Below are positions 37,563-46,923 of a DNA stretch of 64,000 nt, piece by piece. Under the pieces are notes generated by a model that had not been told where the DNA came from, ran no database searches, and worked only from the letters and a program-made list of their open reading frames with translations. The DNA is taken from NCBI GenBank assembly GCA_030539335.1, contig JAUNSG010000011.1:19238-83237 (forward strand), read 5' to 3'. Source of the DNA: Eubacteriales bacterium. Lineage in GTDB: Bacteria; Bacillota; Clostridia; Oscillospirales; Butyricicoccaceae. The position numbers were made by a program, and so were the translations under genes. Each line of letters opens with the position of its first letter. Within the stretch, counting starts at the first letter, position 1.

Positions 37563-38459
37563 ATGAATAACATGCACGCTTTTTCGCAAGAAGTCTCCTG
37601 CGACTCTTTGCTGGATTCGCTGTTTTTTTACGAGAATCAGATCCCTCGTATGAAAAATATCATCCACGTCAGCAATTGTCCCATCTACTCTTACCGCAGT
37701 CATGCGCATGCCTCCTGGGCAGAAATTGTACTGATTGCAGGCGGACAGGGGGTATATCATGTTGGACGCGAACGGTATGAGGTGCAGGCAGGAGATGTTC
37801 TGCTGATTAATCGCATGGTACTTCATTCCTGTGAATCCTCCCCATCCGACGCACTGGATGCCTATACGCTTTCCCTGTGCGAGTTTCAAATTGTTGATTT
37901 AGAACCTGGTATGCTTCTGCCGGCCGACACATGCCCACTTATTAAAACCGGAGACCAATTCCCCTTTGTTCGTGAATTATTCTCGCAACTGCTATTTCAA
38001 AGCAGCGAAAAAAGGCCGGGCTACCGAATGGTTTGCGACCATATTATTTTTGTACTATGCCGCTTTTTCCACCAGTATATCCAGGATTCCTGCAATCACA
38101 TCCGCAGCAAAAGTATATCGCAATTAGCTAGCGAAGTTTTGGAGTATATTGAAGAGAATTTCACTTCCAACATCACGCTGGAAGGTCTGTCAAAACGTTT
38201 TTTTGTTACACCAAAGCACTTATGCCATATCATGTCTACCGAATGTGGTATTTCACCAATTGATTACGTGATTCGCAAGCGCATCAACTCTGCACAATGG
38301 CGCTTGGTAATGGAGGATACCTCGATCAAGGACATTGCTTATGCGTTGGGCTATGAAAGTCAGGATTATTTCACAAAGCAATTTCAAAAGCGCACGGGTA
38401 TGACACCCTCTACCTACCGTTCTCGCTATTCAAAGGTGTTGAAATTTGTATCCCCATAG
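37563..38459 (+). CDS. AraC-family regulator, divergent from the TRAP operon
   Basis: HAHASWAE cupin; LGYESQDYFTKQFQKRTGMTP. Confidence 0.92.
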   Translation: MNNMHAFSQEVSCDSLLDSLFFYENQIPRMKNIIHVSNCPIYSYRSHAHASWAEIVLIAGGQGVYHVGRERYEVQAGDVLLINRMVLHSCESSPSDALDAYTLSLCEFQIVDLEPGMLLPADTCPLIKTGDQFPFVRELFSQLLFQSSEKRPGYRMVCDHIIFVLCRFFHQYIQDSCNHIRSKSISQLASEVLEYIEENFTSNITLEGLSKRFFVTPKHLCHIMSTECGISPIDYVIRKRINSAQWRLVMEDTSIKDIAYALGYESQDYFTKQFQKRTGMTPSTYRSRYSKVLKFVSP

Positions 38460-38838
38460 CGTGCTTTAGCGAGGTGGCTTGGTGTGTTACAGAGTACAGG
38501 ATGATGAGCGGAGACCGTCACAACAACGAAGGAAACAAATAGGAAGACCGTCAGCGGAGAAATCTGCCGGCGGTTTCTTTACCTGCCGGTTATGCGAATT
38601 TTGCCGTGTAGCAATTAGATATTTCAACAGGTACTGAAAAATTTGGTGCGTTTTTCTTTCAAGGTGGTCTCCAAATTTCCACATATTTTGGTGAAAAAAT
38701 GAAAATGTTTCGAGTATTTTTGGAACATTTTTTCAATATATACAGATATTTTTCGCAGAACACGCGTGTTTTGTAAATTATTCCATTGATTTTTCTTCCG
38801 AGCCGAGTATACTTAAAAATAATCTCATATTTCCATAA

Positions 38839-39112
38839 TGCAGTGAACAGGAACACGGATCTACCTGATTCAACCTTTCAGAGAGCCGCCGGATGGTGCG
38901 AGGCGGCAGGACACAGGCAGGTTTATCCCCTGCGAGCAGGCCATACAACAATTGGCGCTGTCAGTTCAGTAATATAGTCCGGCATCCCTCCGTTATCGGG
39001 AAGCGCATTTGCGGCAGAGCGGTCGTATCCACGACAATTGGAGTGGTATCGCGGAGGAAAATTCCAGCCTCCGTCTCCAGCGGTTTTTCACGCGGGAGAC
39101 GGGGGCTTTTCT
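38839..39112 (+). ncRNA. T-box riboswitch leader
   Basis: stem I start TGCAGTGAACAGG with AGAGA and GGTGCGA boxes; T-box AATTGGAGTGGTATCGCGG (39036-39054); antiterminator GAG-TGGTATC-GCGGAGG/CCTCCGT-CTC; terminator GCCTCCGTCTCC/GGAGACGGGGGC+T run; upstream TTGATT-N16-TATACT. Confidence 0.85.
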
Positions 39113-39156
39113 GTTGTTGGAAAGAGTGGGAATTCTATAAGGGAAGTGTTGTTATT

Positions 39157-40839
39157 ATGAATGGTCTCACCATGATGGCAGTTGCCATTGTCGTACTTGG
39201 CGGTGCATATCTGCTGTATGGCAAATGGCTCGCCAAAACCTGGGGCGTCGATCCGAATGCAAAGACGCCTGCTTATGAAATGGAAGATGGCGTGGATTAC
39301 GTCCCGGCGGACCGCGGCGTTGTCTTTGGTCATCAGTTCGCATCGATCGCCGGAGCCGGCCCGATCAATGGACCGATCCAGGCCGCGATTTTCGGCTGGG
39401 TGCCGGTATTGCTTTGGTGCCTGCTGGGCGGCGTCTTCTTCGGCGCAGTACAGGACTTTTCCGCTATGTATGCCTCGGTAAAGAACAAGGGACATTCCAT
39501 CGGCGTCATCATTGAGCTGTACGTCGGCAAATTGGGCAAGAAGCTGTTCCTTTTGTTCTGCTGGCTGTTCTCCATCCTCGTCGTTGCTGCATTTGCCGAT
39601 ATCGTTGCCGGAACCTTCAACGGCTTTGCGGAAGATGGCAGCCTGATCGCCGCCAATGCCTCGGTCGCAACCACCAGTATTCTGTTTATCGCCGCGGCGG
39701 TTTGCCTTGGCTTCTTCCTCAAGTACACGCATCTGCCTGCCGCAGCGAACACAGCCATTGCCATTGTCCTGCTGATTGCCTGCATTGCACTCGGCCTTAC
39801 ATTCCCGGTCTACCAGACGACCGGTTTCTGGCACATGTTTGTGTTTATCTACATCTTTATCGCATCCATCGTCCCGGTTTGGGCGCTGCTCCAGCCGCGT
39901 GACTATCTGAACAGCTATCTGCTGGTTGCCATGATTGTGGCCGCCGTTGTCGGTATCGTGGTGTATAATCCGTCCATGAATCTTCCGACCTTTACCGCAT
40001 TCAATGTCAACGGCTCGTATCTGTTCCCGACCCTGTTTGTCACCATTGCCTGCGGCGCGATTTCGGGATTCCATTCCCTCGTCTCTTCGGGTACGGCGAG
40101 CAAGCAGATCAAGAACGAGCGCGACATGCTGCCGGTCTCGTTCGGCGCGATGCTGATGGAAAGTATGCTGGCTGTGATCTCCCTTGTCTGCGTTGGCTTC
40201 CTCGCCAATGGCGCCGCTCTGCCGGACGGCACCCCGCCGCAGGTCTTTGCCTCCGCCATCGCCACGTTCTTAACCAAACTGGGGATTTCCGAAACCGTCT
40301 CCTCGACCTTGATCCTGTTGGCTGTTTCGGCCTTTGGCCTGACCTCGCTCGATTCCGTTGCGCGCGTCGGACGCCTCTCCTTCCAGGAATTCTTTGTCGA
40401 TGCCGACACGGACATGGATAACCTCTCGCCGACGGTGAAATTCTTATCCAATAAGTATGTCGCGACGGCGGCGACACTGGTTCTGGCGTTCGCATTGGCC
40501 AAGATGGGCTATGCCAACATCTGGCCTCTGTTCGGTTCCGCCAATCAGCTGCTCGGTGCACTGTCGCTCATCGCCTGTGCGGTATTCCTCAAGCACACGC
40601 ACCGCAAGGGCTTTATGCTGTGGTTCCCGATGGTCTGCATGCTCGGCATCACCTTCACGGCGCTGACACTCAAGATTATCGCGCTGGCAACCGCCCTCTT
40701 CGGCGGTACCACAGTCAATGCCTTTGGCGACGGCCTTCAGCTGGTATTCGCTGTCCTGCTGTTCGCCCTCGGCGTGATTGTCGCCGTCATGGGCATCCGC
40801 AAGCTGGTGGAAAAGGAGCCGGTGCGCAGCAACGCATAA
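39157..40839 (+). CDS. cstA: carbon starvation protein A family peptide/pyruvate transporter
   Basis: DGVDYVP, FGHQFASIAGAGPINGP, IACGAISGFH, IWPLFGSANQLL; start MNGL at 39157. Confidence 0.93.
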   Translation: MNGLTMMAVAIVVLGGAYLLYGKWLAKTWGVDPNAKTPAYEMEDGVDYVPADRGVVFGHQFASIAGAGPINGPIQAAIFGWVPVLLWCLLGGVFFGAVQDFSAMYASVKNKGHSIGVIIELYVGKLGKKLFLLFCWLFSILVVAAFADIVAGTFNGFAEDGSLIAANASVATTSILFIAAAVCLGFFLKYTHLPAAANTAIAIVLLIACIALGLTFPVYQTTGFWHMFVFIYIFIASIVPVWALLQPRDYLNSYLLVAMIVAAVVGIVVYNPSMNLPTFTAFNVNGSYLFPTLFVTIACGAISGFHSLVSSGTASKQIKNERDMLPVSFGAMLMESMLAVISLVCVGFLANGAALPDGTPPQVFASAIATFLTKLGISETVSSTLILLAVSAFGLTSLDSVARVGRLSFQEFFVDADTDMDNLSPTVKFLSNKYVATAATLVLAFALAKMGYANIWPLFGSANQLLGALSLIACAVFLKHTHRKGFMLWFPMVCMLGITFTALTLKIIALATALFGGTTVNAFGDGLQLVFAVLLFALGVIVAVMGIRKLVEKEPVRSNA

Positions 40840-41098
40840 CGGATTTCTGAAAAAGTGTACAGAAAAATTTTTAAGCCGCTGGGGAGCGATCCGCTCCCCA
40901 ACGGCCTTCTCTTTGTCAGAGCAAATCCGGATCTAAAAATCGCAAGGAGTACGTTAACATGCCGAATTTGACAATTTCTTGACTTTTCCTTTCCCATTTG
41001 CTACAATAACAGATATTAAATAGGAACGTGCGTAATCCATGAGTTATCTCCGGCCTGCGCACTTTTTGTTTTGCTTTACCGGATCGGAGAGGATTCTT

Positions 41099-42472
41099 AT
41101 GCAAGAAAAACAAAATCCATTGAAAACCGAACGGATCAGTGTCCTGCTCCGTCGGTTTGCCGTCCCCAGTATCATCGCGATGCTGGTCGGCGCCCTGTAC
41201 AACATTGTCGACCAGTTTTTTATCGGGCAAAGTATCGGGGAGCTGGGCAATGCGGCAACCAATGTCGCATTCCCGCTGAGTACCATGTGCATCGCCATCT
41301 CCCTGCTGTTTGGCATCGGCGGCGCCTCCGCCTTTAACCTGACCATGGGGCGCGGCGACCCCAAGCGTGCGATACATTTCATCGGCAACGCCGCCGCCAT
41401 GCTGGTCCTGTGCGGCACGGTGCTGTGTATTGTCGTGCGGCTCTTTCTCACGCCGATGCTCTGTGCCTTCGGTGCGCCGGACAATGTGCTCCCGCTGGCC
41501 CGCACCTATACCGGAATCACCAGCCTTGGCTTCCCGTTTTTGATTTTATCCACCGGCGGCGGCCACTTGATCCGTGCGGACGGCAGTCCCCGGTTTTCAA
41601 TGACATGCAATCTGACCGGTGCGATCATCAACACGATCCTCGATCCGCTGTTTATTTTCGGCTTCGGCTGGGGCATGGCAGGTGCTGCACTGGCGACCAT
41701 TATCGGCCAGTTTGTCGCGGCGATCCTGGTCATCCGCTATCTGATGCATTACAAAACCGTGCCGCTTCAGCGCAGGCACCTGCGTCCGCGTTGGGAGTAT
41801 ATCCGTTGGATCATGTCGCTCGGCGCGGCAAGCTGTTTCAATCAGATTGCCATTACCGTCGTACAGATCGTCATGAACAACTCGTTGACGTATTACGGCG
41901 CGCTGTCCATCTATGGGGAATCCATTCCGCTGGCCTGCGCCGGCATCATCACCAAGGTCAATCAGATCTTTTTGTCGGTTATCATCGGCCTGGCACAGGC
42001 AATCCAGCCGCTGGCCAGCTTCAATTACGGCGCAAAGCAATACGGCCGCGTCCGTCAGACCTATCGCCTCGCGGTCTCGGTTGGCTTTTCGATCGCCCTT
42101 TTGTCCTTCGTTGTGTTCCAAGGCATTCCGCGTCAGATTATTTCGCTGTTTGGCTCCGGTGACGAGCTGTATTTCCAGTTTGCGGTCTCCTATTTCCGCA
42201 TCTTCCTGCTCTGCACCTTCCTCAACTTCCTGCAGCCGATCACATCGACCTTTTTCACCGCGATCGGCAAACCGAAGAAGGGTATGTTCCTGTCCATGAC
42301 CCGTCAGATCCTGTTCCTTCTGCCGCTGATCGTGATTCTGCCGCTTTGGTTTGGCATCGACGGCATCCTGTACTCCGGGCCGATTGCGGACTTTATCGCC
42401 GCGCTGGTATCCTTCCTCATGATCCGTTTTGAGATGCGGCATATGCCGGCCGACGGCTGCCCCGCATCCTGA
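41099..42472 (+). CDS. MATE-family efflux transporter (MepA-like)
   Basis: FAVPSII, YNIVDQFFIG, NTILDPLFIF, GAALATIIGQ, QPLASFNYGA. Confidence 0.93.
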   Translation: MQEKQNPLKTERISVLLRRFAVPSIIAMLVGALYNIVDQFFIGQSIGELGNAATNVAFPLSTMCIAISLLFGIGGASAFNLTMGRGDPKRAIHFIGNAAAMLVLCGTVLCIVVRLFLTPMLCAFGAPDNVLPLARTYTGITSLGFPFLILSTGGGHLIRADGSPRFSMTCNLTGAIINTILDPLFIFGFGWGMAGAALATIIGQFVAAILVIRYLMHYKTVPLQRRHLRPRWEYIRWIMSLGAASCFNQIAITVVQIVMNNSLTYYGALSIYGESIPLACAGIITKVNQIFLSVIIGLAQAIQPLASFNYGAKQYGRVRQTYRLAVSVGFSIALLSFVVFQGIPRQIISLFGSGDELYFQFAVSYFRIFLLCTFLNFLQPITSTFFTAIGKPKKGMFLSMTRQILFLLPLIVILPLWFGIDGILYSGPIADFIAALVSFLMIRFEMRHMPADGCPAS

Positions 42473-42631
42473 TATATGTGCAAAAAAACACCGCTGGGAG
42501 CGCGCGCTCCCGGCGGTGTTCCGATTTTATAACAGATCATTCAATTCCTGCCATAACGAAATTGCAGAGAGCCGATCCGCATGGTATACTATTGTTAAAT
42601 ATTGAGAGACTGCCAATGGGAGGTTGCCGCG

Positions 42632-43366
42632 ATGTTCACCGTAGAAGAGATTCAAAGCCTGAATGAACTGGAACTGGCTGTCTATGAGTACGTTATGCAG
42701 CACAAGAGCACGGTTGCATATATGCGGATTCGGGAACTGGCAACCGAGTCGCACGTGTCCACAACGACGGTGCTCCGATTCTGCAAGAAGATGGGCTGTG
42801 ACGGCTATGCAGAATTCAAGCTCCGGATGAAAGAATACATCGGACAGAAGCAGATCTCGGAGCTGCCGGAGGATTTTTCGGAGATCAAGGCGTTTTTTGA
42901 CCGGATGGAAAACCCGAAATTTCAAAAGAAGCTGGACGAAGCGACGGCGCTGATCACCAAGGCCGACCGTGTCGTTTTCATTGGCATAGGCAATTCCGGG
43001 CACATCGGGCAGTATGGTGCGCGGTACTTTACGAACCTTGGAAAGTTCAGTCTGTACATTTCCGACCCATTCTATCCGGTGAACATGCTGGACACCATGT
43101 CGACGGTAGCGGTTGTCCTGTCCGTGTCCGGAGAACCGCAGCAGATCATTCAAATCGTCAATGGTCTGAAAAAGTCCGGCTGTCAAATGATTGCGATTAC
43201 CAATTCCGAACAGAGCACGTTGGCAAAACTGGCCGATATTGCACTGACGTATTATATCACGATGCACCGGGGAGAAAATAATATCGATTTTACCTCGCAG
43301 ATTCCAGCGATTCATCTGGTAGAGACCCTGGGGAAGCGGGTGCGGAACCGGCTTGCCGAGCGCTGA
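42632..43366 (+). CDS. MurR/RpiR-family regulator
   Basis: HVSTTTVLRFCKKMG HTH plus SIS domain (GIGNS, LSVSGE). Confidence 0.92.
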   Translation: MFTVEEIQSLNELELAVYEYVMQHKSTVAYMRIRELATESHVSTTTVLRFCKKMGCDGYAEFKLRMKEYIGQKQISELPEDFSEIKAFFDRMENPKFQKKLDEATALITKADRVVFIGIGNSGHIGQYGARYFTNLGKFSLYISDPFYPVNMLDTMSTVAVVLSVSGEPQQIIQIVNGLKKSGCQMIAITNSEQSTLAKLADIALTYYITMHRGENNIDFTSQIPAIHLVETLGKRVRNRLAER

Positions 43367-43598
43367 GCGCAGGAAAAGACAAGGGAATCAAACGGTTGAG
43401 AAAACAGGTTGTTTTTTGGAAGGAACATGTTCCGAAAATACATGCCTGTTTTTTCTTGTGTCAAAAATACTGACTTTTCCGGACATTTTTTCTATAATAA
43501 ACACAGTTAACAAACCCGGCGCCGGACGAAACCCAATTCTGTAGAATGGCCAAGATACAGAAGGAAAGAAAAAAGAAAGAAAATGGGAGGAATCCACT

Positions 43599-46923
<3,325 letters not shown>

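Follow-up and report, generated by a model that had tools for sequence, protein, structure and literature searches.

Transporter genes under T-box control are known from several families, which a 2008 survey lists as ABC, APC, DAACS, LIVCS, MFS, NhaC, and NSS (PMC2494555). A close parallel to the system described here is provided by the BrnQ/LIVCS carriers, which stand behind T-boxes of the isoleucine/leucine (Ile/Leu) type and show switches of the branched-chain codon within one family (PMC2494555). CstA (PF02554) is an unrelated transporter family and is not listed in the survey. Full-text literature searches for a juxtaposition of a T-box and cstA returned only (T-box)-cstA1 of Bacillus methanolicus MGA3, a table entry without a specifier that its authors suspected to be a relic (PMC4342826). 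Here, we analyze a cstA gene and its leader in a 64,000-nucleotide stretch of DNA (the window: GenBank assembly GCA_030539335.1, contig JAUNSG010000011.1, positions 19,238 to 83,237 of the forward strand) from a Eubacteriales bacterium of the Butyricicoccaceae. The leader is predicted to be a T-box that reads the Ile codon AUC from a reduced specifier loop. The widespread CstA-family transporters have so far been tied only to pyruvate uptake and, earlier, to peptide use. A predicted and conserved Ile/Leu tRNA sensor ahead of a CstA subfamily, found in gut genera that are abundant (Blautia, Dorea, Lacrimispora, Enterocloster, and Butyricicoccus), offers a testable route to a physiological role or a class of substrate not previously linked to CstA. 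It is also relevant to the ways in which gut anaerobes acquire branched-chain amino acids, for which fermentation acids are a possible source.

Two kinds of described T-boxes serve for comparison. Class I T-boxes with an AUC specifier, such as the ileS leader of Blautia schinkii (L116) and an oxidoreductase leader of the genome that holds the window (L011), share with the cstA leader a long stem I with a kink-turn (K-turn), an AG bulge, and a distal platform, an AUC specifier in an internal loop, stem II and stem IIA/B, stem III, a UGGU bulge, and a terminator/antiterminator switch. They carry AGUA on the 5′ strand of the specifier loop and GAA(-N)-AUC-A on the 3′ strand, whereas in the cstA class a helix stands directly against the codon, the 5′ strand reads A-Y-A-N, A or C follows the codon, and the Rfam score lies just below the cut-off. 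The Class III ileS T-boxes of Actinobacteria (Nocardia farcinica and M. tuberculosis; PMC10482949) share the minimal A-U-C-A presentation and the lack of a stem I S-turn, and they are the nearest published analogue of this bare presentation. In these RNAs, the codon−anticodon duplex is held by an S-turn in stem II (PMC10482949). They differ in having an ultrashort stem I with the codon in its apical loop, no distal platform, and mostly translational control, whereas the cstA leader keeps a long stem I and is predicted to act through transcription termination.

The transporter itself can be compared with CstA/BtsT of E. coli and CstA (CD630_26000) of C. difficile, which belong to the same Pfam family. 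In contrast to these importers, the window CstA is not an equivalog, scoring 232 bits against NCBIfam NF011590 (pyruvate/proton symporter CstA equivalog), below the cut-off of 1188. It is also shorter, at 560 amino acids, and is predicted to be under a tRNA-Ile sensor rather than a LytS/LytTR pyruvate sensor or catabolite control.

A T-box leader upstream of cstA

The leader was examined by covariance-model searches with Rfam RF00230. At the curated gathering score of 93 bits, no match to RF00230 or to any other Rfam family was listed in the window. When matches were reported by E-value, RF00230 aligned with the leader over all 219 model positions (88.9 bits, E 5.7e-20; Table 1), and a search of the whole genome gave 12 T-boxes, with the cstA leader among them at an identical match. 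The Blautia cstA leader scores 88.2 bits. The shortfall from the cut-off is small and coincides with the absent S-turn bases. Because this class of leaders lies just below the threshold, annotation that applies the cut-off would miss it.

A sequence-only reading of this stretch, made before these searches, had described a complete T-box (stem I, UGGU antiterminator bulge, and terminator) directly upstream of cstA. Every one of these elements was found, and the Infernal match covers the full length of the model, though below the gathering score. In the predicted folds, the antiterminator and the terminator compete for sequence, the 3′ arm of the former overlapping the 5′ arm of the latter, and the two structures are mutually exclusive. 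The leader ends 75 nucleotides upstream of the cstA start, and its TATACT −10 element is present also 5′ of orthologous leaders. These data confirm the leader as a predicted T-box controlling a CstA-family transporter. The start codon of cstA is the ATG at 39157; a longer open reading frame from 38893 traverses the leader. The encoded protein (P0001) matches Pfam CstA PF02554 with 483 bits (cut-off 27), the sole Pfam family matched, and its 93% identity to B. porcorum CstA marks the organism as Butyricicoccus-like. The gene lies alone between two hairpins, as a single-gene unit.

The specifier codon

To read the specifier, the stem I regions of orthologous cstA leaders, 35 distinct sequences in all, were aligned with MAFFT. 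The three codon columns, one base before the basal stem, hold AUC in 30/35 leaders and CUC (Leu) in the other five (L034, L035, L040, L042, and L073). The U and C of the codon are invariant in all 35, the bases preceding it are freely variable, and the codon position is, as judged from this alignment, under selection. The TBDB rules place the specifier at positions 2-4 from the 3′ end of the loop and include a third-position C rule (PMC7778990); AUC at 38925-27 satisfies both. The same geometry, applied to the other T-boxes of the genome, gives CUC before leuA, GUC before ilvB and valS, UUC before pheS, UGG before trpE and a trpB-like gene, GCC before alaS, and ACC before thrS, and these leaders validate it as a predictive rule. 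The predicted specifier of the cstA leader is AUC (Ile). The five CUC leaders imply that the specificity of the class is not strictly Ile. Earlier, AUC, UAU (Tyr), and UUU (Phe) had all been named as candidates, with the expectation that orthologous leaders would make the codon readable. The comparison did so: AUC stands, and UAU and UUU are ruled out, their positions varying or sitting in a covarying helix of the orthologues.

Bacterial tRNA-Ile carries an A73 discriminator. In this genome, the tRNAs for Ile(UAU), Leu, Phe, Tyr, and Val have an A-CCA end, which fits UGGU, and the thrS T-box, used as a control, carries UGGA opposite a tRNA-Thr that ends in U-CCA (U73). The discriminator base behaves as expected in this genome. 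The suggestion that the bulge U fits A73 was correct, but the fit does not discriminate among the three codons: A73 is common to the candidate tRNAs, so UGGU cannot choose among them. A tRNA-Ile with the anticodon UAU is encoded at G000:C13:17105-17179. The 45-tRNA draft set is without Ile(GAU), Asn, His, Lys, and Trp, and the missing tRNAs probably lie in unassembled rRNA/tRNA clusters.

Architecture of the specifier loop

The specifier region had been described as lacking the usual GAA-NNN-A pattern, and the cmscan alignment agrees: the conserved GUA of the model (5′ strand) is replaced by GAU and the conserved GAA (3′ strand) by GUU. Across the 35 leaders, a helix extends to the base before the codon. 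Under the specified structure, 89.8% of the cells are paired, as compared to only 34-46% when the partners are slid by 1-3 columns. The pairs adjoining the codon occur as up to six standard pair types, and unconstrained folds of most leaders agree with the picture of a helix set against the codon. The specifier loop is predicted from this covariation to be a small internal loop whose 5′ strand reads A-Y-A-N and whose 3′ strand holds nothing but the codon and a single further base. Both A's of A-Y-A-N are kept in at least 90% of the leaders; the base 3′ of the codon is A in 21/35 and C in 14/35.

Among 23 other T-boxes of this genome and Blautia schinkii, the codon is preceded by GAA in 19, by GGA in 2, and by AAA in 1, and the sole remaining one, also without GAA, is the alaS leader of the window's own genome. 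That leader (L008) has a 4-bp helix, GAUA/UAUC, that possibly abuts the loop of its GCC codon, so reduced specifier loops may extend beyond cstA leaders. The alignments indicate that the atypical loop of the cstA leader is a conserved structural variant, common to the whole class. Both genomes also carry canonical GAA-N-AUC-A leaders, so that one tRNA-Ile would be read by both loop types. For RNA biology, a long-stem-I transcriptional T-box without a loop-E/S-turn that coexists with canonical Ile T-boxes reading the same tRNA would constitute a natural experiment.

Distribution and history of the T-box-cstA unit

A set of 80 orthologous cstA loci was assembled from different species (67-95% identity). 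A full T-box lies ~100-250 nucleotides upstream of cstA in 41/80, across gut Clostridia, and the upstream sequence was too short to judge in 3/80. In 4/80 (L027, L045, L064, and L084), the T-box is partial or decayed, and what is left is stem I by itself, the 3′ half by itself, or short remnants. Such loci look like snapshots of riboswitch loss. In a quick maximum-likelihood tree of the 80 CstA proteins, the T-box genes are scattered over the whole clade, in Butyricicoccaceae, Lachnospiraceae, Oscillospiraceae, and Christensenellales-like metagenome-assembled genomes (MAGs). The well-supported branches require at least 11 gains or losses of the T-box, with a minimum of four separate origins of the Leu codon. 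Given the scatter and the decayed remnants, the T-box-cstA unit looks like an old linkage that has been lost repeatedly. Three Spirochaetota (Treponema-like) MAGs (L039, L051, and L054) carry cstA genes ~70% identical to those of Clostridia and nested among them, with no T-box upstream, and they probably reflect a horizontal transfer in which only the gene moved. In 60 genomes of the family, a DNA search at BLAST level, too insensitive for counting occurrences, gave a single full-length leader; its other matches were generic pieces of stem I.

Several comparisons of gene content and sequence bear on what the transporter carries. No conserved gene neighbor or operon partner of cstA was found across the orthologous loci, and no enrichment of CodY boxes upstream of the T-box-less orthologues. 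No CstA residue tracks Ile versus Leu leaders beyond the clade signal. A sequence search returned no solved structure of any CstA-family protein. The idea that T-box-cstA displaces known branched-chain importers was rejected, as BrnQ is present in 6/41 genomes with T-box-cstA and in 7/34 without the T-box. A Liv-type binding protein occurs in 26/41 of the T-box-cstA genomes; BrnQ and Liv content is no different with or without the T-box, and both are missing only in the Butyricicoccus group. No pattern of auxotrophy emerged: ilvD is present in 36/42 genomes and ilvC in 34/42, and the few without them are MAGs.

Proposed mechanism and substrate of CstA

Our analysis allows us to propose a mechanism for the control of cstA. 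Transcription would start near 38820 and, as long as tRNA-Ile is charged, would be terminated ahead of cstA by the hairpin at 39066-39107. When tRNA-Ile is uncharged, its anticodon would pair with AUC (38925-27) and its elbow would stack on the distal platform of stem I; the free ACCA end would then pair with UGGU (39044-47), locking the antiterminator and allowing cstA to be transcribed. The codon would be presented in the reduced internal loop directly against the helix, without a stem I S-turn, and would probably be steadied by docking of stem II. Since AGUA is retained in stem II of the cstA leader, we infer a dependence on stem II like that of Class III. The CstA produced in this way would import a compound that refills the isoleucine pool, or the leucine pool in some lineages, the leading candidate being Ile/Leu, free or in di-/tripeptides.

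We assign a probability of roughly 0.5 to this reading, in which a Class I T-box is set to tRNA-Ile(GAU) and CstA imports a compound that restores the Ile/Leu pool, chiefly Ile/Leu or di-/tripeptides. Earlier work tied CstA to peptide use, which counts in its favor. So does the gene content of the window's own genome (100% completeness), where BrnQ (PF05525) has no match and Liv-type binding proteins have marginal matches only, none of them convincing. In published cases, transporters under T-box control carry the amino acid of the tRNA that is sensed (PMC2494555), a precedent that points the same way. The sequence-only reading had gone further, concluding that this CstA is an amino-acid or peptide importer whose specificity could be read from the codon. 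A T-box-controlled CstA with a readable codon is borne out by the present results; import of an amino acid or peptide is plausible but is not established by the codon, which names the charged tRNA that is replenished and not the molecule that is transported.

Several observations weigh against an Ile-responsive leader and an amino-acid importer. We know of no CstA-family member that carries an amino acid. The assayed transporters of the family carry pyruvate, as in C. difficile CstA (bioRxiv 10.1101/2021.01.23.427917). Most T-box-cstA genomes have ilvC and ilvD and many have Liv or BrnQ, so that gene content gives no argument for a need for this importer. The RF00230 score lies 4 bits below the curated cut-off. 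The S-turn nucleotides (AGUA opposite GAA) are missing from the cstA leader, and a loop-E/S-turn has been described as exposing the specifier to the anticodon (PMC4574755). The purine normally found 3′ of the codon is absent in the window copy, which has C. In that copy, GGAU (38857-60) can also pair with AUCC (38925-28), hiding the codon, and this fold is ~3 kcal/mol more stable than the class fold (-28.6 vs -25.5 kcal/mol). The pairing is not conserved among close relatives (L014 has GAAU) and was treated as incidental for that reason. Finally, no tRNA-Ile(GAU) gene is present in the 45-tRNA set of the draft assembly, and a tRNA-Ile sequence pattern found none in 21 relatives, probably because the pattern is too strict or the tRNAs are unassembled.

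Other Ile T-boxes provide a second view of the substrate. The only other AUC T-box of the genome is canonical (GAA-A-AUC-A, UGGU) and precedes a four-subunit porCDAB/vor-like 2-oxoacid:ferredoxin oxidoreductase (L093 7080-10077), despite a separate single-chain pyruvate:ferredoxin oxidoreductase (PFOR) encoded in the same genome. This unit, with AUC kept, is found in 5/5 Butyricicoccus-group genomes checked (L096-L100), and it suggests isoleucine synthesis by reductive carboxylation of acyl-CoA. In Blautia schinkii, a third Ile (AUC) T-box (in L107) controls a TRAP transporter; TRAP systems lie outside the T-box-regulated transporter families listed in PMC2494555. With a family whose assayed members carry pyruvate, and with 2-oxoacid and carboxylate functions in the Ile regulon of both organisms, a branched-chain acid is a serious alternative substrate. 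The same riboswitch would then control import of a branched-chain carboxylate precursor that is converted to Ile, such as 2-oxo-3-methylvalerate, 2-oxobutyrate, or 2-methylbutyrate (isovalerate or 2-oxoisocaproate in Leu-set lineages), with conversion in this genome aided by the co-regulated oxidoreductase. We consider this possibility clearly less probable than import of Ile/Leu or peptides. It agrees with the transport of pyruvate, itself a 2-oxo monocarboxylate, by assayed family members (the NCBIfam name; C. difficile CstA), with the carboxylate-binding nature of the TRAP family, and with the retention of ilvC and ilvD in most T-box-cstA genomes. However, cstA shares an operon with a CoA ligase, oxidoreductase, or aminotransferase at none of the loci, the T-box-oxidoreductase unit was found only in the Butyricicoccus group whereas T-box-cstA is far wider, and no CstA is known to transport branched 2-oxo or short branched acids. 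In its broadest and equally tentative form, this proposal is of an Ile-starvation response built on carboxylic acids: CstA, joined in Blautia by the TRAP transporter, might scavenge 2-methylbutyrate or branched 2-oxo acids, Butyricicoccus might co-induce the oxidoreductase to yield isoleucine, and the leader might be a Class I T-box that decodes without a stem I S-turn.

CstA could also simply import pyruvate, like its counterparts in E. coli and C. difficile, with the Ile/Leu T-box serving to raise pyruvate for branched-chain synthesis. Family precedent (the NCBIfam name and C. difficile CstA) favors such a role, and Ile and Leu synthesis both begin from pyruvate in the textbook pathways. T-box and non-T-box orthologues are moreover interleaved, often at >85% identity, and none of their residues follows the codon, which makes a uniform substrate over the clade probable. 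We nevertheless judge the proposal improbable. Pyruvate is central to the metabolism of these sugar fermenters, none of the 35 leaders is set to Val, though Val also needs pyruvate, and no LytS/LytTR pyruvate-sensing system was seen among the sampled neighbors. The protein is also far from the E. coli equivalog and of the short form.

That the leader is a decaying relic without regulation of cstA, or that its specifier is UAU or UUU, is very improbable: the score below the Rfam cut-off, the missing S-turn, the decayed T-boxes at four other loci, and the doubt cast on regulation in B. methanolicus by a break in transcription between the cstA1 start site and the gene (PMC4342826) are set against switch elements that are all intact and covary over 35 leaders, a codon under apparent selection, a transcription break that is the expected output of a T-box in the off state, and U's before AUC that vary or pair within the helix and are not conserved.

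Features of the locus and related units

Table 1. Predicted features of the cstA locus and two related Ile T-box units (window coordinates unless another sequence is named)
Feature	Position	Strand	Basis
Sigma-70-like promoter: -35 TTGATT 38786-91, 16-nucleotide spacer, -10 TATACT 38808-13	38786..38813	+	consensus scan
T-box leader RF00230, full-length	38834..39081	+	covariance-model match, model 1-219
Stem I: K-turn, basal stem 38848-51/38929-32, helix 38857-63/38918-24	38840..38937	+	cmscan alignment, covariation, fold
Specifier internal loop, 5′ strand AACAC	38852..38856	+	orthologous-leader alignment
Stem I AG bulge AGAGA	38880-38884	+	cmscan alignment, covariation, fold
Stem I distal loop (tRNA-elbow platform)	38891-38901	+	cmscan alignment, covariation, fold
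Specifier loop, 3′ strand: codon AUC 38925-27 plus C	38925..38928	+	cmscan, leader alignment, covariation
Stem II (with AGUA) and stem IIA/B region	38938..38995	+	cmscan alignment
Stem III	39021..39036	+	cmscan alignment, fold
Antiterminator with 7-nucleotide bulge UGGUAUC (39044-39050); UGGU 39044-47	39038..39080	+	cmscan alignment, fold
Intrinsic terminator: hairpin 39066-39107 (about -33 kcal/mol) and U-rich tract 39108-18	39066..39118	+	fold
Candidate ribosome-binding site AAGGGAAG	39139..39146	+	read from sequence
cstA, 560 amino acids, the genome's only CstA-family gene	39157..40839	+	profile searches
GC-rich hairpin 3′ of cstA, bidirectional terminator-like	40873..40907	.	scan
Canonical Ile T-box (GAA-A-AUC-A, UGGU) and oxidoreductase gamma, delta, alpha, beta	L093 7080-10387, G000:C1, outside the window	-	T-box search
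TRAP transporter: DctQ, then 1110-amino-acid DctM-DctP-DctP fusion	L117 2387-6223, Blautia schinkii G029:C18	-	

Elsewhere in the genome, a T-box with an ambiguous specifier (ACC or CUG, after GGA) precedes a long-form 2-isopropylmalate-synthase-like (leuA-like) gene (L005, G000:C9); no true citramalate synthase match was found in this genome. The neighbors of cstA in the window, an AraC-family regulator, a MatE efflux gene, and a PTS EIIBCA gene, appear unlinked to the T-box unit. The AraC-family regulator (37563-38459) ends 330 nucleotides upstream of the promoter. Downstream (41039-45473), the MatE gene has a strong TTGACT-17-TACAAT promoter (40979-41007), and the PTS EIIBCA gene occupies 43599-45473.

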